Of a stretch of DNA of 22,674 nt, positions 1-19,800 are shown piece by piece (position 1 is the first letter of the stretch; each line of letters opens with the position of its first letter). Below the pieces are notes generated by a model. That model saw only the letters and a program-made list of their open reading frames with translations, was not told where the DNA came from and made no database searches. This DNA comes from a bacterium. Lineage in GTDB: Bacteria; SAR324; NAC60-12. The DNA lies in contig CBDDTI010000476.1 of assembly GCA_965233585.1 (NCBI GenBank), positions 1-22,674 on the forward strand, in the 5' to 3' direction. The position numbers and the translations under genes are program-made.

Positions 1-377
1 CTTTAATCTTTCCTCATTTAATTTAAAAAAAGAACGGGCAATGCGTATTTCCCAAACCTTTTCAACCTAACATAGAGGAAGGGGACGCCGTTGACTTATA
101 TCGGCATTTATACGACAGTATAGGCATTTCGCACGGCAATCAGTCCATTGGCTTGACGTATGATGCTTTTATAAATGGAAGATTTTTTCTGGCGGCCGAC
201 TTGACACCAGATCAATGTAATTCGTACCACACACATCCAGAAAATTATGGAAATTTAGATTTAGAGTTGGCTTTTTCCCAAATCACTCCCCATCCAATAT
301 ACGTTCTGGCCTTATCTATTTTTAACTCCGGTATTAAAATAGATCAATTTCAACAAGTCATAAAAGGAACCAATTAA
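1..377 (+). pseudogene. 3' end of Maverick major capsid protein, copy A (partial, +1 frameshift in A-run at 25-31)
   Basis: Matches 13381-13756; A7 versus A6 in copy B; C-terminal 74 aa nearly identical to the copy B capsid. Confidence 0.88.
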
Positions 378-380
378 AAT

Positions 381-881
381 ATGGAGGGTGGGTTATCAAA
401 TATCTTTTTAAACAATTACATTCAACCCAGATGTAAGAATGTCATCGGAGTATTTTCGGTCGACGACTTGCCATCTGATCCGCTTTCATTGCCTTGCTGT
501 CTGATCGCTAACTTATCCAAAAGAAATCAAGAAGGATCTCATTTCGTAGCAATGTACATTAACAAGAAAAATCAACTCTATTATTTTGATTCTTTCGGTT
601 TTTTACCACCGATATGGAACAAATGTTTGATGAAGTTTTTACGACCCTGGATAGAGAAAAACTCCTTCAAAATTATCTTATCTCACTCAATTCAGAGTTT
701 CCGTTCTTTGTTTTGTGGATGGTACACGTGCGCATTTTGTTTATCTGTGGGCAACAATTTAATGACCCCTCAACAATTTGTTAAATTATTTGTAAAAAAT
801 CCCAAATCAGAAAATGATAAAATTGTAACTCACTTTATAAAAAAATTGAAAATAAATGTTAATATATTTTTACTTTCATAA
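381..881 (+). CDS. Adenain-like cysteine protease, copy A (-1 frameshift near the C-terminus changes the last residues)
   Basis: GVFSVDDLP, GSHFVA (His), YFDSFG (Asp), IQS..S..CGWY (Gln/Cys) motifs; A7 at 839-845 versus A8 in copy B. Confidence 0.9.
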   Translation: MEGGLSNIFLNNYIQPRCKNVIGVFSVDDLPSDPLSLPCCLIANLSKRNQEGSHFVAMYINKKNQLYYFDSFGFLPPIWNKCLMKFLRPWIEKNSFKIILSHSIQSFRSLFCGWYTCAFCLSVGNNLMTPQQFVKLFVKNPKSENDKIVTHFIKKLKINVNIFLLS

Positions 882-2337
882 CTTTGGATATTTTCCTGAA
901 AAAAGTTTTTTAACAGAATCTACTTTAGCTTCTGATTTAGACATTTTTCTTGTTTTTGATCTGGTTTTTGCAGGAGACACACCAGCTTCAATAGGGTCCC
1001 TGTTTATTGGGCTTTTAGATTGTGACATTTTCATTGATTTTGATCTGGTTTTGGTTTGTGCAGGAGTCATGTTAGCATCAGTGGAATTTCTTTTTGTTGC
1101 ACCCTTCGATTTAGCTTTTCCGGCTGAAAATCGTATTTTAACAGGTGTGAGTGGAAATGAAGGAGAAGAGCTTCCAATTCCTCTTAATCTTCTTTTTCGA
1201 GGGGTAGAGGTCATTCCAAAAATTTTATCTTGATTTCTTACAGACAATTCTTTATAATGATCTTTCATCATATGTTTGGCAAATTGTGGAATGCCGACAT
1301 ATTGCTTCCCGCAATTGGGAAAGGGACAAACTATTTTGCCAGCCGCATTCTTTTCTTTCACTGCTTTTGCAATAGGTGTATTTCGCCAATTTAACACAAC
1401 TGGAGATTTTATTGTAGAAAGTGCGTATGAGTAATCCGTTTCATTTGAGCTGTTTCTTCTAGCGTAAGGGCTGGAAATCATTCCTTTAATGGTCTTTTTG
1501 TCTTTCAAAGCTATATCTTTAGGATGATCTTTTAGCAAATGTTTGCCTAATTGCCCTTCATCAACATATTGCTTCCAACAATCAGGAACTGGACAAACTA
1601 ATTTGCCTTTTGAATTTCTTTTCGTCATCGCTTCTAAAACAGGTGTTTCTCGCCATTCTTCTCGTTTGGTAGTAACAGGAGTTGAATAAGCTGATTCGTT
1701 CGGACTTTTTGTTTTTTCAGGACTAAGAGATTTTTCTGCAACAAATTCTCTTTCAATAATGGGGGTACTAGGTAAATTATTTTCTTCTTGTTGGGGAATT
1801 TCAGTGGGTGTTCTGTAAAGAGATACGTCCGTGAGATCCATATTGGTATCAATTCGAGCAGGTGTTAGTGTATTTGGTATTTCTTCTCGTTGCGTTATTT
1901 GGGTGGATGGTGATCTTAAAACCGGGTGGTAAGCGCGGTCAATACTGCTACCTTTTTGGTAACTCGTCCAGGAGACATTACATTCTGTATTTCTTCTCGT
2001 TGAGAGGATTTGAGTGGATGGTGATCTCGAAAGAGATTGGTAAGTACGACCCATGCTATCAGATTGGGCAATTGATGTGACATTCGGTAATTTATCAGAC
2101 CCAAAACGAAGTAATTTATCCCCAGTTTGGATTATTTTCTGTCTGTCTTGTAGATTTTTAAATTTAATGGCATTTTCAATATAGTTGGTTGTTTCCGGTT
2201 TTTCATTCATAGAAATAAGTTCCTTTTTTTAATTCATCGTCTTCCGTATTTTTTATTAATGAATAATATAATCTTTTAGGTACTAAAAACATGGAATACA
2301 TTTCATCATGTGGTTTTATTTTTACTCCTGAGCTCAT
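876..2337 (-). pseudogene. 2xC2H2 zinc-finger Ser/Thr/Pro-rich protein, copy A (frameshifted)
   Basis: Homologous to 14255-15715; ATG equivalent at 2337; indel at ~2224-2231 and a compensating indel pair at ~1958 and ~2005. Confidence 0.82.
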
Positions 2338-2339
2338 TT

Positions 2340-2714
2340 TTAACGACGACGTCGCGAACTCTTATTTGCAATAATTTGAGCCAAAAGAGGGATGACGGTG
2401 CTGGCGATCGCTGATAAATCTCCTAAAATTCCGCCCTTTTGTAATATTTTTCTTTTTTTTGAAATGTCGGAAGAACGACGCGGCGGTGCAGCAAGACGTC
2501 TAAATTCTGTCAAATGAGCTCTTATCTTTTTTTGAAGACGTGTTCGTACTTTGCCATGTATGGGCAAGTCACCGTTCAACACGTAATGTAATATATGACA
2601 AAGCAATTCAACTCCGCGATCGTCCAAATGACTTAAAAAATTGGCACAATCCTGATGTTTTAATTTTTTTATTACATAAAAAAGTGAACTAGCTTTTCCT
2701 AATGTTTTAGACAT
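2340..2714 (-). CDS. Small basic Maverick protein (124 aa) with QKGG motif and C-terminal amphipathic helix, copy A
   Basis: Intact ORF nearly identical to 15717-16091; ends QKGGILGDLSAIASTVIPLLAQII..RRRR. Confidence 0.8.
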   Translation of the reverse strand: MSKTLGKASSLFYVIKKLKHQDCANFLSHLDDRGVELLCHILHYVLNGDLPIHGKVRTRLQKKIRAHLTEFRRLAAPPRRSSDISKKRKILQKGGILGDLSAIASTVIPLLAQIIANKSSRRRR

Positions 2715-2762
2715 TTTGACAGTTGCAATTTTTTATTTTTCTTAAATAGATATGAAAATCCT

Positions 2763-3102
2763 TTAAACGGTAACGTAAGCTTTCATCAGTCCCTCGTACG
2801 GAAAAATGTTGCTTCGAATTCTGACTTTATCGTCTTGTTGTTGATGGAAATCTAGAAGGAGATATCCGTGACTTCGACCGTTAACAGCTTCCCTGTATGC
2901 TTTATTTAAAATTCCGACTCGTCCGGGGAAAATTTGTTTAGCCAAATGCGCAACCGCACTTCTGTCCCGAGGATTGTTAAAAAGAACCATATACTGTGTG
3001 TTTATGCTTAATGTCCGCAAATCGCCTTTTTTATCAAATAAATTTTGACACAGAAAAACGGTGAAACAATTGTAGTGATGAGTCAAAACCGTAAAAAAAA
3101 TG
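2763..3102 (-). pseudogene. 3' fragment of A32/FtsK-like packaging ATPase, copy A, truncated by the retroelement
   Basis: Translation matches the C-terminal ~110 aa of the copy B ATPase; Walker A/B part missing beyond 3102. Confidence 0.92.
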
Positions 3103-3278
3103 TCTTTGCTTTGTTATATCTGTATTGTACTTTAGAGGCCTTTAATCATACACTTTTATAAGTTCTTCCATTTTAGACTGCCTTTCATTTCATGAATCAC
3201 TGGGTGTGGTTTCTATCTCAAAACTGAGTGGGGAATCTGTTGATTCCGGACTCACGCAACCTTTCATGCAATCTCACA
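3103..3278 (-). repeat. 3' LTR (176 bp; TGTGAG...CAAAGA on minus strand)
   Basis: Identical by eye to 8516-8691; preceded by the PPT. Confidence 0.95.
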
Positions 3279-3287
3279 CCTCCCCCC
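3279..3287 (-). other. Polypurine tract GGGGGGAGG
   Basis: Purine run directly abutting the TG start of the 3' LTR. Confidence 0.88.
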
Positions 3288-3491: not shown

Positions 3492-3941
3492 TTAATGCTC
3501 AGTGGACTTCGGCTTCTTGGTAGGTCTTTTGGAGCTTCCTTCCTCGTGATCGTCTTCGATTTCTGCAATCCTGGATCGCTGGTGGAACGAGCGTTGGATT
3601 CGTTGATCGAGGGGTTCATATGTAAGGGCGAGCTGTTGGAACGCCCTGGCGACTGAAGGATCACACATTGGGGGTGGCCAGTGCGGCGATGGAGCGACCG
3701 TGTGGGGCGGCTCCCAGCCGCTGGTTGCCGGTCTGCCGATCTGCTGCTGCCTCCGTTTATCCCCTCGTTTCCGGCGGGCGATGCAGAAGTATAGAATCAG
3801 AGCCCCTAGGACAACCAATCCGAACCCTGCTCCAAGGGTGGGGAAATGGACTTCCAACATGTGGAAGCCTTCGGAGGACTCCATGGACGAGCTTTGGACG
3901 TTGGTGGTGCCCGAATTTGGCTTCGATGATGATCCACCCAT
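3492..3941 (-). CDS. 149-aa predicted myristoylated single-pass membrane protein, FAST-fusogen-like architecture
   Basis: ATG in strong context (ataATGG); MGGSSSK myristoylation consensus; TM LGAGFGLVVLGALILYFCIA; polybasic RRKRGDKRR; Pro-rich PSPHWPPP; occupies the env position. Confidence 0.75.
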   Translation of the reverse strand: MGGSSSKPNSGTTNVQSSSMESSEGFHMLEVHFPTLGAGFGLVVLGALILYFCIARRKRGDKRRQQQIGRPATSGWEPPHTVAPSPHWPPPMCDPSVARAFQQLALTYEPLDQRIQRSFHQRSRIAEIEDDHEEGSSKRPTKKPKSTEH

Positions 3942-4114
3942 TATTGGAGTGTGAGCACGAATGTGTGGAGTTTCCGGAGCAACTGGGTGATAGTCTCAGA
4001 TATCTCCGGATAGAATATGGTAGCTGCCAAGCACAGTGCTCCGATGATGCTGAGGATCAGTAAGAAGTCGATGACTTTGCACATCGCCGGGTTGACTGTG
4101 ACTGGCACTAACAT
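3941..4114 (-). CDS. 57-aa small hydrophobic membrane ORF (absent from the ORF track)
   Basis: MLVPVTVNPAMCKVIDFLLILSIIGALCLAATIFYPEISETITQLLRKLHTFVLTLQ*; ATG 3 nt after the pol stop; its TAA overlaps the next ATG (TAATG). Confidence 0.62.
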   Translation of the reverse strand: MLVPVTVNPAMCKVIDFLLILSIIGALCLAATIFYPEISETITQLLRKLHTFVLTLQ

Positions 4115-8497: not shown

Positions 8498-8515
8498 ACT
8501 GCCGCAACTGCGCCA
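8498..8515 (-). other. Primer-binding site TGGCGCAGTTGCGGCAGT, probably tRNA-Ser
   Basis: TGG immediately follows the 5' LTR; TGGCGCAGT is complementary to the ...ACTGCG-CCA 3' end found in some animal tRNA-Ser; tRNA identity inferred. Confidence 0.75.
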
Positions 8516-8691
8516 TCTTTGCTTTGTTATATCTGTATTGTACTTTAGAGGCCTTTAATCATACACTTTTATAAGTTCTTCCATTTTAGACTGCCTTTCA
8601 TTTCATGAATCACTGGGTGTGGTTTCTATCTCAAAACTGAGTGGGGAATCTGTTGATTCCGGACTCACGCAACCTTTCATGCAATCTCACA
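8516..8691 (-). repeat. 5' LTR (176 bp) with TATAAAA at 8573-8567
   Basis: Identical to 3103-3278; followed by the PBS and the gag ATG at 8446. Confidence 0.95.
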
Positions 8692-9524
8692 ATTGTCTCA
8701 ATATTGGTTTGCCGCACTTGATAATATCTGACCTTTTTTACATTATGGTAAAAATAATGACCCTCCATTTGCTTAGGTAAAGTTGTTGTAAACATAATTG
8801 TGGAATAATTATCACTGTTAGGAACGTCGGAAATAATATTTGATTTTACGTGAACCAAACCGGGTTTTAAAACGGAATACACTTTATTTGCTATGGTTTG
8901 AAACCTAAAATTTTTTTGTAACGGATAATACACATATTCGTTGTCAAATACCTTAATTGTTTTTTCTCCAGAAAATAACACTCCGTCTTTATAACATCTT
9001 AACTTTATAATTTTTATTAAATGTTGATGAATTAGTAAGTATCTATTATAATTGTAATTTTCATTTTCCGACTCATTTTCAGTTTCTTTTTTAGGACCTT
9101 CTTCAATTATGTAGACTCTTTTATTTTCACCGTCTGATTTGACGTCACCACTAGTCAATTTCATTCCTTCCTTGTAAATATATTGCATCAAGTGCTGCAT
9201 TAATCTATATATTGTCAGATCCTCTTCATCTAAATCGGGCAAAACCCAAACGGATTTTGTCTGGTCTAAAATCTCGGTCTTTATCTCCTCTTCTGAAGAA
9301 TTTATAGATGTTAATTCGTTTTTTAGCATTATGACACCGGTTTGACCTTTTGTCATGGTTAATTGGTTGTAATTATAATGTAACCCCATAGATACTATTC
9401 CAATTTCCCATTCTCTATTTTTCAAATCTAAATTTTGCGGAAATAAATTGGTAAAGGAATTTAAAGTATTTTTGACGTCCGTATTGGAACCAGCGTTTGA
9501 CACGCAATAAATGTTATAATCCAT
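8692..9524 (-). pseudogene. Minor capsid (penton-like) protein, C-terminally truncated by the LTR
   Basis: N-terminus YNIYCVSN....KNTLNSFTNLFPQNLDL..EWEIGIVSM typical of Polinton minor capsids; after VRQTNIETI the ORF reads into LTR sequence. Confidence 0.8.
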
Positions 9525-9530
9525 TCCGCG

Positions 9531-10613
9531 TTATTGTGACACATCAACTACATCTTTTTCATATGTCCAACTAGGGTTTTTATACCCTTTCCATTTCACC
9601 AAAACCATTTTTTTGCCTGTTTTTTTATCTTTTTTTGTTCGTAAAATCTTTTCAATCACAAATAATTCCGGCTCATTCACGGGAGTAAGTTCACTCTCGT
9701 AAAAATTCCCTTCCAGAGTTTCATCCTGTTCTAAAGTTTCTAATTCATAAGTAGGTTTAGGCAAACGAGTAAAAATTGATTTTATTTTAAAAATTTCTTC
9801 CTTAAATTGTGGTGTAAAACCTCTGTCAAATTTTTCCTTCATTATGCTAATGCGCACGGTTTGACCAATTTTGTATTTCGGTCTTTTTCTTTTAAACTTT
9901 GAATAATGCAATTCCTGTTTTCTTCTAATGAGATAGGTCCGACCAGGGAGCTCGGCTTCAGCGGGTGACATCCCAATCATGCGATGTTTACGATTGTTGT
10001 AGGTATGAACAAGAAAGGGCAACGCATCGATGTACCTATCTGTATTTTCGTGAGTCATGTATTTAAACATCAGATTTTTTAAAGTTCGGTTAAATCTTTC
10101 CACAAAGGGGGCGTGCACAAAATTGTTGCTGTGTAATAGAAGAATGTTATTGTTTTTGCAGTAGGCTTGAAACAATTTATTCTTAATTTCTGCGCCCTTA
10201 TCAGCTAAAATTCTACGTGGAAACTTTTTTGCTCTTTTCATAATAGACTCAAATCCCTCCATAAAAGTTTTTGCTGTTTTATTTTTTAAGGGTTCTACAA
10301 ACGCGAATCGTGTAAAAATATCGATGGCTGTTAAAAGGTATCTATTTCCGTCATTTTCTTCGATCAAATTTCCTAAATCTATAAGATCAATTTGAAATTG
10401 ATATCTCTTATGATAAGCAAATGTCGGATTTCTAGGTTTAGGTAATTTTGGTTGTTTATGAAGTGTGTAAGAATCAGTTCCCTTTAACCATTCTTCAATT
10501 GTCGTCAAAGGAATTTTTTTTCCATAATAATAATAAATCAACGCAGGAGATGCAAAAGCTATTGGTGAGCCTGGTCTTGCATATTCTTTTAAAAAAATCT
10601 CTTTTGTTGTCAT
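9531..10613 (-). CDS. Maverick rve integrase with C-terminal chromodomain
   Basis: FQIDLID, IDIFTRFA, ADKGAE, VERFNRTLK, YNNRKH..IGMSP; chromodomain FVIEKIL...LVKWKGYKNPSW. Confidence 0.96.
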   Translation of the reverse strand: MTTKEIFLKEYARPGSPIAFASPALIYYYYGKKIPLTTIEEWLKGTDSYTLHKQPKLPKPRNPTFAYHKRYQFQIDLIDLGNLIEENDGNRYLLTAIDIFTRFAFVEPLKNKTAKTFMEGFESIMKRAKKFPRRILADKGAEIKNKLFQAYCKNNNILLLHSNNFVHAPFVERFNRTLKNLMFKYMTHENTDRYIDALPFLVHTYNNRKHRMIGMSPAEAELPGRTYLIRRKQELHYSKFKRKRPKYKIGQTVRISIMKEKFDRGFTPQFKEEIFKIKSIFTRLPKPTYELETLEQDETLEGNFYESELTPVNEPELFVIEKILRTKKDKKTGKKMVLVKWKGYKNPSWTYEKDVVDVSQ

Positions 10614-10619
10614 TTCTTT

Positions 10620-11021
10620 TTAAAACAGGGGTTGTTTAGTTATTCTCCGTCTTTTTTTCCTAGATTTAGCAATTGACGGGGTTTTCCTCTTTCTGCTCAA
10701 ATTTTGAGCCCGATATTCGTTGTCGGTATCTGCTTGTCTAGCAGCGTTAAGCAAAATACCGCGAGTAGCGGATTTTAAACGTTGTTTAGCTTTTCTGCCG
10801 ACCGGTTGACCCTCCAAAGCTTCTAATGCTGTTTCTACCACCGCCTTTGTCGCCTCTTTTTTTAAAGCTTTACCTGCGGATCTTATCGGCGCGCTTCTAG
10901 CCACTTTTCCAATAGTTTTTACCGCTGATCTTGCTACCGGCATTAAACCGCGAAAGATTCCGGAAAAAAGTGATCCGATTCCCGAGCCTCGTTGCCAACG
11001 TAAGCCGCTGTGGTAATTCAT
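10620..11021 (-). CDS. Basic core/precursor-like Maverick protein (133 aa)
   Basis: QRGSGIGSLFSGIFRGLMP N-terminal motif, Ala/Lys/Arg-rich body, basic tail. Confidence 0.75.
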   Translation of the reverse strand: MNYHSGLRWQRGSGIGSLFSGIFRGLMPVARSAVKTIGKVARSAPIRSAGKALKKEATKAVVETALEALEGQPVGRKAKQRLKSATRGILLNAARQADTDNEYRAQNLSRKRKTPSIAKSRKKRRRITKQPLF

Positions 11022-11029
11022 ATATTTTA

Positions 11030-11776
11030 TTAATGCTTTAGACTTTTAAGACATCTGTATAAAGACATAACACTAACGCCTAAAATACGAGCCGTATTTT
11101 TGACGCTCGGATATAGTGTTCTTGTTTCTTTTAAAAAGGCATAAGCACATGCTGCTAATAAAGTCCTAGGAGCAAAAGAACTATTTTCATTTTTATTCAG
11201 TTTTTCTTTTATAGTTGTCATCTCTTGATAATTTAACTGTAGAGGCTGTAAAAAATATTCTGCCATATCTTTTGCTTTTATAGAATTTTCTGTTTTAATT
11301 GTGTTGGTCGAATCTTGTCTGTATAATTTTATCCATCGCCATACCGTTTTTGGATTAATGCCAACTTCCTGACACAAATGACTTATTGGACGGGGAATTT
11401 TTTCCTCTATTAAACTTTGATACAATACCATAGCAATTAAGCCTTTCGGATTAATTTTAATTTTTCCATTTTTTTGATAATGCCACGCTGCTATTTCTGA
11501 CCACAAATTAAAAATAGTGTTTGTGACATCATTATTTAAATGTAATTTATTACATAAATTTTTTAAAATATTTTTTTCTTTCTTCAAATGTTCGCTGTTT
11601 TGTTCAAATTCTTCATTTAAATTTTTTATTTTTTCCCATTTTATTTCTAAATTTGGTTCACAATATATTTTATCAATAACTAAACCACACTCAGTACACA
11701 CTACGTCTCCTTGTCTGGTGTCTTCTATTATATATTGATGAATGCACATTTTAATCCAATCTAATTTTTTGAACAT
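11030..11776 (-). CDS. TFIIB-like transcription initiation factor (start at 11776 or 11749)
   Basis: Zn ribbon CIH...EDTRQGDVVCTECGLV; two cyclin-like repeats (LCNKLHL...MVLYQSLIEEKIPRPISHLC; PRTLLAACAY...ARILGVSVMSL). Confidence 0.88.
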   Translation of the reverse strand: MFKKLDWIKMCIHQYIIEDTRQGDVVCTECGLVIDKIYCEPNLEIKWEKIKNLNEEFEQNSEHLKKEKNILKNLCNKLHLNNDVTNTIFNLWSEIAAWHYQKNGKIKINPKGLIAMVLYQSLIEEKIPRPISHLCQEVGINPKTVWRWIKLYRQDSTNTIKTENSIKAKDMAEYFLQPLQLNYQEMTTIKEKLNKNENSSFAPRTLLAACAYAFLKETRTLYPSVKNTARILGVSVMSLYRCLKSLKH

Positions 11777-11856
11777 AATTCCATTGTTTATTGAATGAAG
11801 TTCAAAATTTGACTGAATTTACAAATAAACCAACGTAATCTTTTATTATATTGAAT

Positions 11857-12399
11857 TTATTCGGTTTTATATTTTTTCAGCAATTCATAAATAATTTTTA
11901 TTCCTTGTTTAGCGTCTTCTTCGCTGGAAGCTCCAATTATTACTATTTTTCCAGACGAAAATATTAAAGCAGAACACTTCTTTAATGTTAAAAACATTCC
12001 AGGAAATTTCTCAGAGTCGTATCTCTTTTGGATAATCCCAAAATCTACATTTAATTTCAAATTGTTGTAAAATGTTAATAAATTGATTCTTGATGACATT
12101 TGACACAAACAAGTCATGTTTTCTATTTTAAACTTTTCAGTAATAAATTTACTACTTATAACAAGTTTTAATTCGTCTAATGCTTTTGGTATATGCTCTG
12201 TGGAAGGGATTTTAGTGATATTTACGTGGAAATTTCGACTCTGTTTTGTTTTGGTAAACACAATAAAAGAATATTTTTTTTTAACAACAGTAAAATTATT
12301 ATAATGTTTTATTACATTATCGGTATTAAAAGAAATTTTGTCGCTGTCGATGAGACGAATTTTGCAACTGATTTTAACATTGCTGACCATCACTTCCAT
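11857..12399 (-). CDS. TATA-binding-protein-like factor (~180 aa from ATG 12399)
   Basis: Two TBP repeats: VSNVKISC / IENMTCLC, RYDSEKFPGMFL, ALIFSSGKIVIIGA. Confidence 0.88.
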   Translation of the reverse strand: MEVMVSNVKISCKIRLIDSDKISFNTDNVIKHYNNFTVVKKKYSFIVFTKTKQSRNFHVNITKIPSTEHIPKALDELKLVISSKFITEKFKIENMTCLCQMSSRINLLTFYNNLKLNVDFGIIQKRYDSEKFPGMFLTLKKCSALIFSSGKIVIIGASSEEDAKQGIKIIYELLKKYKTE

Positions 12400-12406
12400 C
12401 TTTGGT

Positions 12407-13756
12407 ATGGGCTTGCCCGATAAAAGCGGAATTGCTGGATTGGCCGTGGAACAAAACGATGGCACAGAAAGTGGTTTAGCGCTTCACGCACCCTTAGAAG
12501 TAGAAACGGGTCTATTGGAAGGGGCTCACGTTATTTACAATAGCGTGGCTTCTATCACTAACACTGGACCGGTAGAATTTCTTGTTCCTCGCGACAACGA
12601 GTGTTCTTTTATACTGAGTCAAACCAGACTTAGTGGACATTTTGTAGTGACAAATGATGACGGCGGCTTTGTCACGGACGCAAGTAAAACTGCGTTGGTA
12701 AATCATTTTGCTGCTTGTTTATTTAGTCAAGTGGAAGTATATTTGAACGGTGTTCAAGTAGCTGATTTGAGTTCGGCGGTCACCTACCCCTGGAGAATGT
12801 TTTTACAATCATATTTAAGTTACAATATTGACGTAAAAGACACTTATCTGGCTGCTGAAGGATATTATCCTGAAAATGAAGACGAAGTTACTGCTACCAA
12901 AATTACTGAAGACGTTTCCTCTCATTCTTTAAAAAAAAGAAAAAAGTTAATTTTAAACGGAAAAAAAGTATTTTTCAACTCGCGTATAGCCGTTGATCTG
13001 TTTGACACTGATCGATTTTTACCTCCAAATGTGGATATCAAGATAAAATTGGTTAGATCGGCTGAAACATTTGGTTTGCTTCAAGATCCTGCAGCAGCAA
13101 AACCTTTCAAAATTGTGTTGAAAGATGTCAAATTGCATATGAGAAAAGTGTTGCCCACGTTGATAATACGAGAAAGTTTCAAAAACAAACTTTTAAAAGA
13201 ACCGTGCTACCTACCTTTCAGCTCTACACGTTTAAGACATTACGTTATTCCTCAAGGCGTGTCGTCTTTTAACATCGCTAATATTGCTAATGGAACATTA
13301 CCCAAACAAGTGTTTTTTGTGATGGTTCACAATCAGGCTATGTCGCATGCTCCCGACAAAAATCCTTTTAATTTTCAACACTTTAATCTTTCCTCATTTA
13401 ATTTAAAAAAGAACGGGCAATGCGTATTTCCCAAACCTTTTCAACCTAACATAGGAGAGGGGGACGTTGTTGACTTGTATCGGCATTTATACGACAGTAT
13501 AGGTATTTCGCACGGCAATCAGTCCATTGGCTTGACGTATGATGCTTTTATAAATGGAAGATTTTTTCTGGCGGCCGACTTGACACCGGATCAATGTAAT
13601 TCGTACCACACACATCCGGAAAATTATGGAAATTTAGATTTAGAGTTGGCTTTTTCCCAAATCACTCCTCATCCAATATACGTTCTAGCCTTATCTATTT
13701 TTAACTCCGGTATTAAAATAGATCAATTTCAACAAGTCATGAAAGGAACCAATTAA
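12407..13756 (+). CDS. Maverick major capsid protein (double jelly-roll)
   Basis: GPVEFLVP, VNHFAACLFSQVEVYLNG, RFLPPNVDIKIKL, KNPFNFQHF, GNLDLELAF motifs; ~450 aa; likely start ATG 12407. Confidence 0.92.
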   Translation: MGLPDKSGIAGLAVEQNDGTESGLALHAPLEVETGLLEGAHVIYNSVASITNTGPVEFLVPRDNECSFILSQTRLSGHFVVTNDDGGFVTDASKTALVNHFAACLFSQVEVYLNGVQVADLSSAVTYPWRMFLQSYLSYNIDVKDTYLAAEGYYPENEDEVTATKITEDVSSHSLKKRKKLILNGKKVFFNSRIAVDLFDTDRFLPPNVDIKIKLVRSAETFGLLQDPAAAKPFKIVLKDVKLHMRKVLPTLIIRESFKNKLLKEPCYLPFSSTRLRHYVIPQGVSSFNIANIANGTLPKQVFFVMVHNQAMSHAPDKNPFNFQHFNLSSFNLKKNGQCVFPKPFQPNIGEGDVVDLYRHLYDSIGISHGNQSIGLTYDAFINGRFFLAADLTPDQCNSYHTHPENYGNLDLELAFSQITPHPIYVLALSIFNSGIKIDQFQQVMKGTN

Positions 13757-13759
13757 AAT

Positions 13760-14242
13760 ATGGAGGGCGGGTTATCAAATATCTTTTTAAACAATTACAT
13801 TCGACCCAGATGTAAGAATTTCATCGGGGTATTTTCGGTCGACGACTTGCCATCTGATCCGTTCACATTGCCTTGCTGTCTGATCGCTAACTTATCCAAA
13901 AGAAATCAAGAAGGATCTCATTTCGTAGCAATGTACATTAACAAAAAAAATCAACTCTATTATTTTGATTCTTTCGGTTTTTTACCACCGATATGGAATA
14001 AATGCCTGATGAAGTTTTTACGACCCTGGATAGAGAAGAATTCCTTCAAAATTATCTTATCTCACCCAATTCAGAGTTTCCGTTCTTTGTTTTGCGGATG
14101 GTACACGTGCGCATTTTGTTTATCTGTGGGCAACAATTTAATGACCCCTCAACAATTCGTTAAAATATTTGTAAAAAATCCCAAATCAGAAAATGATAAA
14201 ATTGTAACTCATTTTATAAAAAAAATTGAAAATAAATGTTGA
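13760..14242 (+). CDS. Adenain-like cysteine protease, copy B
   Basis: His (GSHF), Asp (YFDSFG), Gln/Cys (IQS..SLFCGWY); AATAAA at 14231. Confidence 0.94.
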   Translation: MEGGLSNIFLNNYIRPRCKNFIGVFSVDDLPSDPFTLPCCLIANLSKRNQEGSHFVAMYINKKNQLYYFDSFGFLPPIWNKCLMKFLRPWIEKNSFKIILSHPIQSFRSLFCGWYTCAFCLSVGNNLMTPQQFVKIFVKNPKSENDKIVTHFIKKIENKC

Positions 14243-14254
14243 TATATTTTACTT

Positions 14255-15715
14255 TCATAACTTTGGATATTTTCCTGAAAAAAGTTTTTTAACAGAATCT
14301 GCTTTAGCTTCTGATTTAGACATTTTTCTTGTTTTTGATCTGGTTTTTGCGGGAGACATACCAGCTTCAATAGGGTCCCTTTTTGTTGGGCTTCTAGATT
14401 GAAACATTTTCATTGATTTTGATCTGGTTTTGGTTTGTGCAGGAGTCATGTTAGCATCAGCGGAATTTCTTTTTGTTGCGCCCTTCGACTGGGCTTTTCC
14501 AGCTGAAAATCGTATTTTAACAGGTGTGAGTGGAAATGAAGGAGAAGAGCTTCCAATTCCTCTTAATCTTCTTTTTCGAGGGGTAGAGGTCATTCCAAAA
14601 ATTTTATTCTGATCTCTTACAGACAATTCTTTATAATGATCTTTCATCATGTGTTTGGCAAATTGTGGAATGCCGACATATTGCTTCCCGCAATTGGGAA
14701 AGGGACAAACTATTTTGCCAGCCGCATTCTTTTCTTTCACTGCTTTCGCAATAGGTGTATTTCGCCATTTTAACACAACGGGAGATTTTATTGCGGAAAG
14801 TGCGTATGAGTAATCCATTTCGTTTGAGCTGTTTGTTCTAGCGTAAGGACTGGAAATCATTCCTTTAATGGTCTTTTTGTCTTTCAAAGCTATATCTTTA
14901 GGATGATCTTTTAGCAAATGTTTGCCTAATTGTCCTTCGTCAACATATTGCTTCCAACAATCAGGAACTGGACAAACTAATTTGCCTCTTGAATTTCTTT
15001 TCGTCATCGCTTCTAAAACAGGTGTTTCTCGCCATTCTTCCCGTTGGGTACCAACAGGAGTTGAATAAGCTGATTCGTTCGGACTTTTTGTTTTTTCAGG
15101 ACTAAGAGATTTTTCTGCAACAGATTGTCTTTCAATAATGGGGGTACTAGGTAAATTATTTTCTTCTTGTTGGGGAATTTCAGTGGGTGTTCTGTAAAGA
15201 GATACGTCCGTGAGATCCATATTGGTATCAATTCGAGCAGGTGTTAGTGCATTTGGTATTTCTTCTCGTTGCGTAATTTGGGTGGATGGAGATCTTGAAA
15301 CAGGGTGGTAAGCGCGGTCAATACTGCTACCTTTTTGGGTAACTCGACCAGGTGACATTACATTCTGTATTTCTTCTCGTTGAGGGATTTGAGTGGATGG
15401 TGATCTTGAAAGAGATTGGTAAGTACGACCCATGCTATCAGATTGGGCGATTGATGTGACATTCGGTAATTTATCAGACCCAAAACGAAGTAATTTATCT
15501 CCAGTTTGGATTATTTTCTGTCTGTCTTGTAGATTTTTAAATTTAATGGCATTTTCAATATAGTTGGTTGTTTCCGGTTTTTCATTCATAGAAATAAGTT
15601 CCTTTTTTGATTCATCGTCTTCCGTATTTTTTATTAATGAATAATATAATCTTTTAGGTACTAAAAACATGGAATACATCTCATCATGCGGTTTTATTTT
15701 TATTCCTGAACTCAT
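14255..15715 (-). CDS. 2xC2H2 zinc-finger, S/T-P-rich basic protein (~486 aa), copy B
   Basis: CPVPDC..H..KDH and CPFPNC..H..KDH; ATG 15715 lies one base after the upstream stop; MFLVPK N-terminal motif. Confidence 0.85.
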   Translation of the reverse strand: MSSGIKIKPHDEMYSMFLVPKRLYYSLIKNTEDDESKKELISMNEKPETTNYIENAIKFKNLQDRQKIIQTGDKLLRFGSDKLPNVTSIAQSDSMGRTYQSLSRSPSTQIPQREEIQNVMSPGRVTQKGSSIDRAYHPVSRSPSTQITQREEIPNALTPARIDTNMDLTDVSLYRTPTEIPQQEENNLPSTPIIERQSVAEKSLSPEKTKSPNESAYSTPVGTQREEWRETPVLEAMTKRNSRGKLVCPVPDCWKQYVDEGQLGKHLLKDHPKDIALKDKKTIKGMISSPYARTNSSNEMDYSYALSAIKSPVVLKWRNTPIAKAVKEKNAAGKIVCPFPNCGKQYVGIPQFAKHMMKDHYKELSVRDQNKIFGMTSTPRKRRLRGIGSSSPSFPLTPVKIRFSAGKAQSKGATKRNSADANMTPAQTKTRSKSMKMFQSRSPTKRDPIEAGMSPAKTRSKTRKMSKSEAKADSVKKLFSGKYPKL

Positions 15716-15716
15716 T

Positions 15717-16091
15717 TTAACGACGACGTCGCGAACTCTTATTCGCAATAATTTGAGCCAAAAGAGGGATGACGGTGCTGGCGATCGCTGATAAAACTCC
15801 TAAAATTCCGCCCTTTTGTAATATTTTTCTTTTTTTTGAAATGTCGGAAGAACGACGCGGCGGTGCAGCAAGACGTCTAAATTCTACCAAATGAGCTCTT
15901 ATCTTTTTTTGAAGACGTGTTCGTACTTTGCCATGTATGGGCAAGTCACCGTTCAAAACGTAATGTAATATACGACAAAGTAATTCAACACCGCGATCGT
16001 CCAAATGGCTTAAAAAATTTGCACAATCCTGATGTTTTAATTTTTTTATTACATTAAAAAGCGAACTAGCTTTTCCTAATGTTTTAGACAT
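15717..16091 (-). CDS. Small basic Maverick protein (124 aa), copy B
   Basis: QKGGILGVLSAIASTVIPLLAQII amphipathic tail; intact in both copies. Confidence 0.82.
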   Translation of the reverse strand: MSKTLGKASSLFNVIKKLKHQDCANFLSHLDDRGVELLCRILHYVLNGDLPIHGKVRTRLQKKIRAHLVEFRRLAAPPRRSSDISKKRKILQKGGILGVLSAIASTVIPLLAQIIANKSSRRRR

Positions 16092-16138
16092 TTTGACAAT
16101 TGCAATTTTTTATTTCTCTTAAATAGATATGAAAATCT

Positions 16139-16834
16139 TTAAACAGTAACGTAAGCTTTCATCAGACCCTCGTACGGAAAAATGTTGCTTCGAATTCTGA
16201 CTTTATCGTCTTGTTGTTGATGGAAATCTAAAAGGAGATATCCGTGACTTCGACCGTTAACAGCTTCCCTGTATGCTTTATTTAAAATCCCGACTCGTCC
16301 GGGGAAAATTTGTTTAGCCAAATGTGCAACCGCACTTCTGTCCCGAGGATTGTTAAAAAGGACCATATACTGTGTGTTTATGCTTAATGTCCGCAAATCA
16401 CCTTTTTTATCAAATAGATTTTGACACAGAAAAACGGTGAAACAATTGTAGTGATGAGTCAAAACCGTAAAAAAATGTTTTAATATTTGTCCAACATCGT
16501 CTAAATAATCGTCAAAAACAACTAATTTGGGCATTTTTCTTGGATATGATTCCAAAATATCTTTCAATTCTTCAATCGAATTTGGAATACTTTTAAATTT
16601 ACGAAATGTTGGAAAGCGAGAGTTTGAACGTTTGTCTCGATTCATATCTTCTTCCATGTATTCATAAGCTTTTTGCGGTTCTTTGTAGAACAACAACATT
16701 GTTTCTGGCGGAGTTGCAAAATATTCGTGCCTACCAACCACTAAATGTTTAAGCCACGTTGTTTTTCCACTCGATGTTGGGCCAACAATTAACATGTTGG
16801 AAGGAATACTGAACCTTAAATCAAAACCATCCAT
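16139..16834 (-). CDS. A32/FtsK-like DNA packaging ATPase
   Basis: Walker A IVGPTSSGKT, Walker B VVFDD, LCQNLF, NPRD; likely start MDGFD at 16834. Confidence 0.95.
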   Translation of the reverse strand: MDGFDLRFSIPSNMLIVGPTSSGKTTWLKHLVVGRHEYFATPPETMLLFYKEPQKAYEYMEEDMNRDKRSNSRFPTFRKFKSIPNSIEELKDILESYPRKMPKLVVFDDYLDDVGQILKHFFTVLTHHYNCFTVFLCQNLFDKKGDLRTLSINTQYMVLFNNPRDRSAVAHLAKQIFPGRVGILNKAYREAVNGRSHGYLLLDFHQQQDDKVRIRSNIFPYEGLMKAYVTV

Positions 16835-16898
16835 TTTGCTAGTTTTTGAAAGAATATTTAAAAATTTTTTCTTAAATAAAAGTAACAATATGTTTTAT

Positions 16899-19800
16899 TT
16901 ATTTACAAATATGGCATTTAGACGATTTGTTGTTGACAATAAGACAATTTCCTAGTGATAAAGTGTGATATCCGCAATTCAAAATGTGTCTTTTGGAATC
17001 CATTGCTGATAACGCAATCTTTCTTTGAAAACATGTCCGAATTTTATGATTCTTCGATCTTAAGTTTTTGAAAGATTTGTAAATTAGAACAGTCTGTTTC
17101 AGACATTTTTTGTAATCGTTATAGGACAATTGCTTTTTTATGCTAGATTTTTTTAAACCTTTGCAAATTTTCTTTTCTTCTGTTTTGTTTTTGTCTAAAA
17201 AATCAGTAATTTTCATAGAATAACATTTTGGACGTAAGCCTATAAAGTGAGTAATAGCTGCTCTGCCTTTTAGTTCGTCTTTGAAATAAAAAAGCTGATT
17301 GGCTCTACTGTCATCGAAAAGAGGATGTTGTTTGGGGTACTTTGAAAAATCAAATATGTGCTCCAATTTTTTCATTTCCCTTTCCAAGTTGTTGCATCTT
17401 ACTTTTAAAAGAAAAGAATCCGTGTCTGAGAAACATAAAGACACATTTTCTTTACCAAAATGTTGTTGAATCGTGTCATAATACGATCTGTACATAAACA
17501 ACTTGGACAATTCCAAAATAGAAAATCCAACGGCTAAAGGCTTCTTGAGCTCTATTATTGCTGGCTTCTTGTTGACAGCCACCAAGTTCTCATTGATGAT
17601 TTGAAAACTGTTGATGTGTTGACCAAGACTGGCTTTCCTTAAGCTTTGTTCATCTCCACAAAGGACCACTTCAGAGTAATTTCGAACATTTTCTGAAATG
17701 CAGAATAAGATTTATTTTATAAATAAATATATTGTTTTAAAAGAAAATTGATTATGCGCGCAAACACCTCAGCTAACTAGCCGTCCTATATCACATTTCA
17801 TTTTCCTCTGTAATTAGCAATGTGCTATAATTTACTACAATTTGAGATCATTCCGTTTTTTAAGCCCGACATAAACGGTCATCAAAAATTCTCACAAAAT
17901 AAACACCAAGTCAAAATGGATAAAAAAGACCAGGAAAAGAGCAAGGCTTTTTGGTTAAAAGTGATAAAATCAGGTCAGGAGGAGGCAACTTCAAGTCCGA
18001 CTTCTGGCAGTAGCTTTACTGGGGCTGCGGCTGGGGGAGCATGGTCATCTACTAAAACTGGGGGAGCATGGTCATCTTCTGGGGCTGCGGGTGGAGGAGC
18101 ATGGGCATCTTCCGAGCGTCCCGTGGCTCCTGCTTGGCCATCACGGACCCCGTACAAAGTCCGTCCCACAAAAATCAGGGTCGGAGTCGTGGAAGAGCAC
18201 ATCTACTGTCGGAGCCGGGGGTGGGGGAGCATGCTCATCTACTAAAACTGGGGGAGCATGGTCATCTTCTGGGGCTGGTGTGGGGGGATCATGGGCATCT
18301 TCCGAGCGTCCCGTGGCACCTGCTTGGCCATCACGGACCCCGTACAAGTCCGTCCCACAAAAATCAGGGTCGGAGTCGTGGAAGAGCACATCTACTGCCG
18401 GAGCCGGGGGCGGGGGAGCATGGTCATCTACTAAAACTGGAGGAGCATGGTCATCTTCTGGGGCTGTGGGTGGAGGAGCATGGTCATCTACTAAAACTGA
18501 GGGGGCATGGTCATCTACTAAAACTGCGGGAGCATGGTCATCTTCTGGGGCCTTGGGTGGGGGATCATGGGCATCTTCCGAGCGTCCCGTGGCACCTGCT
18601 TGGCCATCACGGACCCCGTACAAGTCCGTCCCACAAAAATCAGGGTCGGAGTCGTGGAAGAGCACATCTACTGCCGGAGCCGGGGGCGGGGGAGCATGGT
18701 CATCTACTAAAACTGGAGGAGCATGGTCATCTTCTGGGGCTGTGGGCGGAGAAGCATGGTCATCTACTAAAACTGAGGGGGCATGGTCATCTACTAAAAC
18801 TGCGGGAGCATGGTCATCTTCTGGGGCCTTGGGTGGGGGATCATGGGCATCTTCCGAGCGTCCCGTGGCACCTGCTTGGCCATCACGAACCCCGTACAAA
18901 TCCGTCCCACAAAGGTCGGAGCCGGAGTCATGGGATGAGCAGACCTCTCATCGCGTGTCATTTGATTTGTCTTCACAATCGACATCAAAATCTAAACCAC
19001 CACCCTATCGTCACGTGGAACCTTCACCGACGCCAGAAGTGCGTCAAGTAACAGCATTTCCATCGGTGTGGTCTCCGTCTACAGCTCGAAAAGTTACCAA
19101 AAAAAATTAAATTTAAATTTTGATCATTTTTCTTTTTCCTTTTAATTACAAAATAAACTCAACATTTTATAAAAATTGATTTTTCAAAAAGTTTGCGTAC
19201 TTGACTAATTAATTTCGCGAATTCTTAATTTAATATTGATTTAATATTATGAATATTTATGAGATAATTTGCTAATTAATATGTAAAGGTTTGGAGATTC
19301 ATTTTCTAAAATTGACAAAACCATGCGGGAAAATTCAAAACAAATTTTTAGAGAAGGAAGAGGAGAAGGAGAAGGAAAAGGAAAATGGACAAAGGAAAGT
19401 TGGGGAGGATGATGAGGAGGGGGAAATACGAGGTATTAAAGGTAAAATGGACGGAAGAGGAGGAGGAGGAGAGGTTCAAGCTGTTGCCGGACCCACCATC
19501 GAGCGAGGCACCGCCGCGTCCGCCACTGATGGGAGGCGGTGGCCGTCTTAGACGGTTCGCCAGGGGCTTGATCGAGATGATCAGGACGGCCGCCGCCTCC
19601 GTTGCCGGCTCCATCACCGGACGTCCGGACGTCATCCCCGTCGACGTCATCCCCGCCAACGTCATCGGCCCCGCCAACAAAGCCGAGGCCAAAGACGACG
19701 ACGATGACGATTTTGACATCGGCCCCGCCAACGAAGCCGATGATGCCAAAGACGACGATGACGATTTTGATGAGGCTAAGTGTGTGGTTGGTGCCGGCAG

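Follow-up and report, generated by a model that had tools for sequence, protein, structure and literature searches.

A conserved small gene for a predicted membrane protein of FAST/sORF2-like architecture in place of env in a Ty3/gypsy-type LTR retrotransposon

Contig CBDDTI010000476.1 (assembly GCA_965233585.1, filed under the bacterial lineage SAR324), analyzed here over its 22,674 nucleotides (nt) and referred to as the window, carries on its minus strand a long terminal repeat (LTR) retrotransposon of 5.6 kb with a small open reading frame (ORF), ORF3, between pol and the 3′ LTR. ORF3 is a real, selected and conserved accessory gene of this env-less Ty3/gypsy-type element; that it is a gene, that it is conserved and that it is linked to pol are all observed. 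To judge from its sequence, its 149-amino acid (aa) product (P0001) represents a new family of the sORF2/FAST-like kind, a kind of small membrane protein first described in 2025. The explanation we favor, whose chances we regard as about evenly balanced, is that ORF3 encodes a small single-pass membrane protein that, in the manner of FAST and sORF2 proteins, would enable envelope-free passage of the element from cell to cell. Before 2025, env-less LTR retrotransposons were held to stay within the cell that expresses them. Envelope-free transfer has since been described for Drosophila MDG1 elements, in an account whose listed retrotransposon look-alikes are confined to arthropods (Voichek et al., 2025; bioRxiv 10.1101/2025.03.14.642691).

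ORF3 reads from an ATG at position 3941 to a TAA stop at 3494-3492, and the plus-strand reading of this interval is riddled with stops; a preliminary description of the locus, made from the letters alone, had given its limits exactly and omitted its orientation. The first residues, MGGSSSK, fit the PROSITE-type N-myristoylation pattern G-{EDRKHPFYW}-x(2)-[STAGCN]-{P}. The 34 residues that precede the transmembrane (TM) helix are Ser/Thr-rich and acidic, lack an N-glycosylation sequon and end in GFHMLEVHFPT, within which lies the hydrophobic patch FHMLEVHF. A single Kyte-Doolittle peak follows (19-aa windows starting at residues 31-39; best window residues 36-54, mean 2.38), with Cys53 near the cytosolic end of the helix. 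An AlphaFold2 model of P0001, with an overall predicted local distance difference test score (pLDDT) of 68.4, places helices at residues 24-31, 33-68, and 95-105, with pLDDT 95 at 41-60. The residues before the TM helix carry a net charge of -2 and the 20 that follow it one of +8 (8 K/R), a bias that predicts an N-out topology. The 94-aa tail opens with the polybasic patch RRKRGDKRR at residues 56-64, passes through a stretch with nine Pro in residues 70-95, reads RIAEIEDDHE at 124-133 and is Lys-rich at 137-149; Arg, Pro, and His together make up 31% of this endodomain (family median 30%). The myristoylation consensus, the N-terminal segment of about 35 aa, the lone TM helix ending in Cys, the polybasic patch and the Pro-rich stretch had all been recognized in the preliminary description and are borne out here. 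So is its possible amphipathic helix as far as P0001 is concerned, since helix 95-105 covers VARAFQQLA, whose hydrophobic moment of 0.64 is the third highest in the protein. The motif order is, as the same description had stated, the one that defines FAST proteins (PMC12945298); in the published account of them, it also defines sORF2/FAST-like proteins (Voichek et al., 2025).

Conservation in sister elements had been set beforehand as one point on which the reading should stand or fall, and on this point it stands. A phmmer search with P0001 of all 1.84 billion cluster representatives (50% clustering) gave 70 proteins at the cut-off of E ≤ 1e-3, 13 of them at E ≤ 1e-10. P0166, a 1206-aa repeat protein aligning to the tail alone, was dropped as a false match, leaving a family of 69 proteins, P0001 included, that are 57-217 aa long as predicted; the family length has a median of 151 aa and a range of 107-194 aa. 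The motifs are kept. A core, G-[FL]-H-x-Φ-E-[ILV]-H-x-P-[TS], stands immediately before the TM helix in 68 of the 69, and MG occurs upstream of it in 58, the MG nearest the core fitting the myristoylation pattern in 53; most of the 11 members lacking MG are gene calls that are truncated or extended too far. A TM segment is present in 68 of 69 (P0188 was left unscored because the core expression missed it) and a polybasic patch, defined as at least four K/R within the 20-residue stretch where the TM segment meets the cytosol, in 66 of 69. The cytosolic boundary itself carries a Tyr in 46 and a Cys in 45 of 68 sequences. The ectodomain has a median length of 34 aa (range 22-42) and the tail one of 95.5 aa.

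In an alignment of 68 of these sequences, H32 is conserved in 100%, H27 and P34 in 99%, G25, E30, and G37 in 97%, S23 and M1 in 93%, G2 in 90%, R124 in 88%, and G39 in 85%; in a 45-sequence alignment, A2, residues M1, G2, H27, H32, and P34 are invariant. Median pairwise identity is 0.36 over ectodomain and TM segment together vs. 0.23 over the tail, where a C-terminal motif, R-[FI]-x-E-[VIL], is nevertheless found in 29 of 69 members, compared with a mean of 0.3 over 300 shuffles. Word-indexed protein searches returned one relative besides P0001 itself with that sequence and eight others with profile A2; the patterns [LFM]E[VI]H[FT]PTLG and GFH[IV]LEIH gave 20 and 74 matches in prokaryotic genome contigs, none of them a true relative, and a Pfam search of P0001 gave no family. 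In a subgroup of three proteins (P0150, P0174, and P0196), the N-terminal region is longer and carries two Cys ahead of the core; P0196 begins MGHGGSK some 60 residues upstream of the core. Such proteins could represent a form of the family whose ectodomain is larger and looped by a disulfide.

The sister proteins also speak to position. Three relatives, P0002 and the cluster-mates P0128 and P0197, are predicted with long, in-frame N-terminal extensions and represent two sister clusters; for these, all synonymous back-translations were enumerated and the other frames read. Residues 1-47 of P0197, in the +2 frame, are compatible with VVVQD.TS.KW..G.I......RSY.....DG...RRNRRFLRK, which is the C-terminus of the window's pol. 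The decoding score was 110 against the window's pol (maximum of 57 in a null of 60 shuffles) and 101 and 104 against the pol homologs P0003 and P0004 (null maxima 61 and 63), and the terminal pattern RRNRR[FLI][FLI]R-x-x-stop fits all three extended relatives, as against 34 of 200,000 random 60-mers. In two independent clusters, 46-51% identical to P0001, ORF3 thus begins some 190 nt downstream of the pol stop, compared with 176 nt in the window. Its place behind pol is therefore conserved, the upstream extensions being decoded as the C-terminus of pol. In the window itself, ORF3 lies on the gag-pol strand, 176 nt 3′ of the gag-pol stop and 204 nt 5′ of the polypurine tract and 3′ LTR, with its start at internal position 4575 of the element. 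The sense strand from the pol stop to the 3′ LTR holds four ORFs, namely one of 57 aa, ORF3, an overlapping one of 75 aa and one of 33 aa, of which ORF3 is the longest; there is no ORF of env size in this interval and no env Pfam family, which accords with the earlier placement of ORF3 in the env position of an env-less element.

That ORF3 is not a chance reading frame follows from this family of conserved relatives, from simulation and from codon usage. The 5.6-kb element was simulated 3000 times under a first-order Markov model. Of the 22,761 ATG-initiated ORFs of at least 80 aa that arose, 386 had the myristoylation pattern alone, five the pattern with a TM segment, and none the pattern, TM segment, and polybasic patch together; in the real window all three occur in one of 32 such ORFs, which is ORF3. 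Alone among the six frames, that of ORF3 resembles gag-pol in codon usage (log-likelihood ratio (LLR) +0.081 per codon; others -0.06 to -0.24), and its GC content at third codon positions (GC3) is 0.627 vs. 0.623 for pol.

If ORF3 does serve envelope-free passage, a sequence of steps can be proposed. Gly2 would be N-myristoylated and the hydrophobic segment would act as a reverse signal-anchor, leaving the acylated 34-aa N-terminus outside the cell and the basic tail inside. Myristate, together with the G-F-H-x-x-E-x-H-x-P-T helix seated on the glycine-rich TM start, could then perturb the outer leaflet of an apposed membrane or of the protein's own, while the juxtamembrane Cys/Tyr and the polybasic patch would keep the tail at the inner leaflet and steer trafficking. 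The tail, through its Pro-rich part and the R-[FI]-x-E-[VIL]-acidic motif, may recruit a cytosolic partner, either host adaptors and actin or the element's own capsids, and a local, transient fusion or close apposition would let capsids enter a neighboring cell, for instance from soma to germline, with no envelope. Expression would call for a spliced subgenomic RNA or for re-initiation, and the small ORF that ends in TAATG on the ORF3 start codon hints at coupling of the latter kind. Fusion, soma-to-germline spread and even the membrane localization of ORF3 are in this scheme what we infer from the protein's layout.

A number of points weigh against this account. What would tie ORF3 to fusion is its architecture alone, and no sequence or fold relation of ORF3 to any FAST or sORF2 protein is detectable: Foldseek with the P0001 model gave no match in BFVD at E ≤ 1e-3, as expected for a protein made of one helix and a disordered tail, and the best match in a sequence-profile search of PDB was stannin, at E 0.059. 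The amphipathic helix is not a family feature, because residues 95-105 fall in the least conserved part of the alignment, so that this part of the preliminary description does not carry over from P0001 to its relatives. ORF3 sits behind an ORF of 1442 codons, and its expression would need one of the special means named above. The retroelement context covers the window and two sister clusters, all within a single 15-row branch of the family tree that is weakly supported (71/95), the remaining 52 rows being without genomic context. The mobility history of the window's copy is blurred, in that there is no target-site duplication and the two flanks do not fit one empty site. The analogy also rests on a model that is itself incomplete, since by the published account sORF2 has yet to produce fusion in heterologous assays and a requirement for it is genetically unproven (Voichek et al., 2025; 10.1101/2025.03.14.642691).

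Of the other explanations, the one that survives best, though we think it unlikely, is that ORF3 serves membrane docking, assembly or egress and is not a fusogen. It would anchor Gag particles at a membrane, promote vesicle-type release through ESCRT/Nedd4 drawn in by Pro-rich motifs, or form a small viroporin-type oligomer resembling an ion channel, with transfer taking another route. The tail, at 94 aa, is far longer than those of the insect sORF2 proteins and bears the linear motif whose frequency exceeds expectation so clearly, and the glycine-rich TM start (G37 97%, G39 85%) would suit helix packing. Two short motifs are enriched in the tails as well, with PPxY in nine of 69 members against a shuffle mean of 2.9 and P[ST]AP in five of 69 against 1.0; this enrichment is modest, however, the shuffle maximum for PPxY also being nine, and P0001 has no PPxY. 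Gag has one of its own, the late-domain-like PPPEY (7171-7157 on the minus strand; gag-pol residues 426-430), which lies between the zinc knuckles and the protease. A purely cytosolic docking role would not account for the strongest conservation in the family, which falls on the membrane-proximal ectodomain motif.

It is quite unlikely that ORF3 is a host-modulating accessory protein that down-regulates surface molecules, blocks super-infection or dampens defenses with no transfer of the element. An MGG..SK start, a polybasic patch and Pro-rich stretches of SH3/WW type are also typical of signaling adaptors, and a feature search of the ESM Atlas put P0001 closest to clusters without a name and to small TM adaptors, among them stannin, opalin, and LIME1, at weak scores of 0.86-0.91; such scores are, however, reached by shuffled proteins 4-10 times in 100, and Pfam showed no membership of any family. 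The combination of an env-less element and an env position instead parallels that of sORF2, for which co-localization with capsids has been reported (Voichek et al., 2025).

It is improbable that the family consists of cellular genes for small TM adaptors, of which one copy was captured by the window's element and a few of its sisters. Genomic context is at hand for only three of 69 members, and the contigs of 29 relatives span anything from 516 to 46,999 nt, but the gene lies after pol in both sister clusters that could be decoded, and ORF3 and pol have equal GC3. The only protein name in the family is 'hypothetical protein' (P0140), and a profile search gave metagenome sources only. Moreover, several relatives stand on contigs of the size of one LTR element (5321-6601 nt), as do pol homologs; those within the 52-row remainder of the tree, P0196 (5407 nt), P0140 (5480 nt), P0142 (5321 nt, four contigs), and P0145 (6601 nt), are suggestive of the same context there. 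That ORF3 is a chance ORF or the decayed remnant of an env, as its shortness, low-complexity tail and want of a database family might suggest, is in our reading refuted by conservation of the start region and motifs across the family, in line with the simulations, with a 34-aa ectodomain showing no signal peptide, cleavage site, heptad region or Pfam env match, and with the absence of a fused pol-ORF3 form or of the core motif from all 123 pol homologs searched.

A bolder combination of four claims is, taken as a whole, doubtful. It holds that an undescribed and widespread family, comprising 69 or more clusters at 50% identity, would occupy the env slot of a non-MDG1 and possibly non-insect Ty3/gypsy lineage; that envelope-free cell-to-cell transmission would have arisen more than once in animal retrotransposons; that the invariant H-x2-E-x-H motif on the glycine-rich TM start could act as a fusion switch that senses pH or metal; and that the 57-aa TM ORF coupled through TAATG could encode a second subunit. 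We know of no FAST or sORF2 protein with such a switch. FAST proteins are described as acting at neutral pH and with no trigger (PMC12945298).

The carrier itself is laid out in Table 1. Its 176-nt LTRs are 100% identical, from which the copy, in which ORF3 is intact, is taken to be young, and the element has a GC content of 50-59% compared with 24-42% in the flanks. A TATA-like word, TATAAAAG, at 8573-8566 in the 5′ LTR is a candidate promoter. A primer-binding site is expected to begin with TGG, pairing with the CCA at the 3′ end of a tRNA, and the sequence directly after the 5′ LTR does so; no tRNA gene and no Rfam family was found in the window. The single gag-pol ORF encodes two CCHC knuckles (7372-7271), followed by protease, reverse transcriptase, RNase H and an integrase with zinc-binding domain and core and no Chromo match in Pfam (E values: RT_RNaseH 1.4e-24, Integrase_H2C2 6.5e-13, rve 2.2e-11, RVT_1 2.5e-10, Asp_protease_2 1.2e-6). 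It has 2695 homologs at E ≤ 1e-20, with a top identity of 66%, and its ESM Atlas neighbors are 'K02A2.6-like' and Ty3 gag-pol clusters, i.e., generic Ty3/gypsy. One gag-pol ORF without a frameshift, the order of protease, reverse transcriptase, RNase H and integrase, and the lack of a chromodomain fit the Mag lineage of Ty3/gypsy, the label chosen in the preliminary description, and are not exclusive to it.

Table 1. Features of the LTR retrotransposon and of ORF3, listed in the direction of transcription of the element; positions are those of the window
Feature	Position	Strand	Basis
5′ LTR, 176 nt, begins TGTGAG	8516..8691	-	100% identity to 3103-3278
Primer-binding-site-like sequence TGGCGCAGTTGCGGCAGT, directly after 5′ LTR	8498..8515	-	sequence read
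gag-pol ORF, single, 1442 aa	4118..8446	-	ORF, Pfam, motifs
sORF-A, 57 aa, one hydrophobic helix, in pol frame, starting one codon past the pol stop	3941..4114	-	translation
ORF3, FAST/sORF2-like protein P0001	3492..3941	-	translation, relatives, AlphaFold2, simulation
N-myristoylation pattern MGGSSSK, codons 1-7	3921..3941	-	pattern match
Signature motif GFHMLEVHFPT, codons 25-35, ectodomain/TM junction	3837..3869	-	alignment, regular expression, AlphaFold2 helix 24-31
Predicted TM helix TLGAGFGLVVLGALILYFCIA, codons 35-55, with G37/G39/G41, Tyr51, Cys53	3777..3839	-	Kyte-Doolittle, AlphaFold2
Juxtamembrane polybasic patch RRKRGDKRR, codons 56-64	3750..3776	-	sequence
Pro/Arg/His-rich stretch (also Trp), codons 70-95, 9 Pro in 26 residues	3657..3734	-	sequence
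C-terminal motif RIAEI, codons 124-128, then EDD	3558..3572	-	motif count in relatives
Polypurine tract GGGGGGAGG, abutting 3′ LTR	3279..3287	-	sequence read
3′ LTR	3103..3278	-	identity to 5′ LTR

The small ORF between pol and ORF3, sORF-A, overlaps the ORF3 start with its stop, as TAATG, and its codon usage is pol-like (LLR +0.235, GC3 0.684). In the sister elements its frame-decoded scores are borderline and the frames inconsistent (61 vs. a null maximum of 64, 81 vs. 82, and 71 vs. 69), and its exact sequence was not found in the protein collection. TGGGA is the termination-reinitiation word of the calicivirus type; it was not found in the 260 nt upstream of the TAATG.

On either side of the LTR element, positions 1-3099 and 8692-17669 resemble a Maverick/Polinton-type virus-like element. 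They encode an A32/FtsK-like ATPase and a chromodomain-bearing rve integrase, and there is a weak match (E 0.008) to an adenovirus-type protease. A TFIIB-like gene is found at 11030-11776 and a very divergent gene for TATA-binding protein (TBP) at 11857-12465 (Pfam TBP 2.6e-19); in PDB, TATA-binding protein chains match it best, at E 6e-16, and the next-ranked TBP entries are about level with them. TBP and TFIIB genes of its own are unusual for an element of the Maverick/Polinton type. No polymerase or capsid gene was recognized in the flanks, and PHROGs gave no match for nine flanking ORFs. The flanking element is present in two copies, 1-3099 and 13381-16475 being 96% identical over 3.1 kb, and the LTR element interrupts the ATPase gene of the first, with junctions at 3099/3103 and 8691/8692. 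A 297-aa ORF beyond the 5′ LTR was considered as the rest of this gene and rejected, as it is unlike the ORF beside the intact ATPase gene of copy 2 (E 1.1). Because the remainder of the ATPase gene is missing beyond the other LTR and there is no target-site duplication, the junctions suggest recombination between two copies of the LTR element or an assembly join. Farther along, GC-rich (52-59%) tandem repeats are set in AT-rich sequence at 18033-19049 and 19663-19770, with units of 276 nt (four copies, 63-96% identical) and 54 nt (two copies), and the repeats are overlapped by long ORFs of both strands.

Among known systems, the Env proteins of retroviruses and errantiviruses, whose genes would stand where ORF3 does, have a signal peptide, a cleavage site, a fusion peptide, heptad repeats and a large, glycosylated ectodomain. 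ORF3 differs from them in its 34-aa ectodomain and in lacking a signal peptide, cleavage site and heptad region. The closest FAST layout is that of the myristoylated p14 of reptilian orthoreovirus. FAST proteins are of about 100-200 aa and are described as having an acylation signal, a hydrophobic patch, a polybasic motif and R/P/H-rich or polyproline motifs (PMC12945298), and p14 is reported to hijack actin (PMC7244324). With them ORF3 shares this inventory, i.e., an acylation signal, a hydrophobic patch, a single TM segment and a polybasic then Pro-rich tail, as well as an agent that has no envelope; it is not a member of the reoviral FAST families, because its carrier is an LTR retrotransposon and theirs a double-stranded RNA reovirus. 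To our knowledge, no FAST protein has been described with two invariant His and a Glu in its ectodomain. A lead from the Pfam family Orthoreo_P10 (PF07204) was rejected as compositional: it appeared below the cut-off in four of 45 relatives, no better than unrelated TM families, and its best alignment (E 0.0045, 17.4 bits vs. a cut-off of 21.4) spanned the TM helix and basic patch only. The smORF2 of nackednaviruses and the ORF2 of the avian megriviruses and poeciviruses are likewise described as small, myristoylated single-TM ORFs of non-enveloped reverse-transcribing or RNA viruses. They differ from ORF3 in length (75-114 aa) and in sequence, and the nackednavirus ORF lies upstream of the core gene. 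Fish nackednaviruses pair smORF1 with smORF2, an arrangement that can be compared with sORF-A and ORF3 and that also recalls MDG1 elements.

The nearest parallel is sORF2, a myristoylated single-TM protein of about 70 aa encoded by the env-less MDG1-group elements 412, Mdg1, Stalker, Blood, and Tabor of Drosophila (Voichek et al., 2025). That of 412 was shown experimentally to lie at the plasma membrane, to co-localize with capsids and to be associated with protrusions that invade the oocyte, and 105 sORF2/FAST-like candidates of 63-107 aa, mostly 5′ of gag, were listed in Gypsy consensus sequences from arthropods (10.1101/2025.03.14.642691). The screen behind that list asked for 60-210 aa, one TM segment, N-out topology, MGxxxS/T, an ectodomain of 10-50 aa and a tail below 150 aa (Voichek et al., 2025); ORF3 fits it with 149 aa on the gag-pol strand, one TM segment, MGGSSS, a 34-aa ectodomain and a 94-aa tail, and with a topology that charge predicts to be N-out. 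Full-text searches of the literature on sORF2/FAST-like proteins and on myristoylated TM proteins of LTR retrotransposons found none described beyond this published set and drosophilid follow-ups to it. ORF3 differs from the published proteins in length, in lying after pol and not, as most of them do, before gag, and, as a family, in two conserved motifs of its own, the invariant H-x4-H of the ectodomain and the one near the C-terminus. A word search of all six sheets of Table S1 of Voichek et al. found SGFH, SGLH, FELH, and FEIH nowhere, and LEIH/LEVH in mosquito sequences only and in another context; since the signature motif is absent from that table, independent acquisition of ORF3, relative to the published sORF2, is plausible. 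By eye, mosquito sORF2 sequences in the table (PMC11952523), with MG..SK..GDPQVQ.LN.LE[IV]HE..H..H, and lepidopteran ones, with ..V[IV]AQN.., loosely resemble P0001 residues 14-32 when set against the family order MG..SK..NVQ.S..E...GFH..E.H, a likeness that could reflect distant homology or coincidence.

Should the favored explanation hold, a second and sequence-unrelated family with the same architecture would stand in the env position of another lineage, and the strategy would be a general one. The insect sORF2 proteins are reported not to be amenable to homology searches (Voichek et al., 2025), whereas the alignable motif of the ORF3 family permits them. Residues G2, H27, E30, H32, P34, and R124 would be targets for mutagenesis, and the longer tail with its conserved linear motif would offer a route to a cytosolic partner. 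The preliminary description had read a 3′ position in a Mag-like lineage as a sign of independent acquisition. Such a position is in itself nothing new, as sORF2 also lies downstream of pol in seven of 22 lepidopteran consensus sequences (10.1101/2025.03.14.642691). These lepidopteran ORFs are of about 100 aa and in the word search lacked the G-F-H-x-x-E-x-H-x-P-T motif, but they share with ORF3 both their architecture and their place, some 4.2-4.6 kb into the internal region and after pol. With the MDG1 proteins ORF3 has in common an env-less Ty3/gypsy carrier, a small ORF in sense orientation and a juxtamembrane polybasic patch, and its family displays two further features noted for sORF2, namely ectodomains near 30 aa in length and Tyr where the TM helix meets the cytosol.

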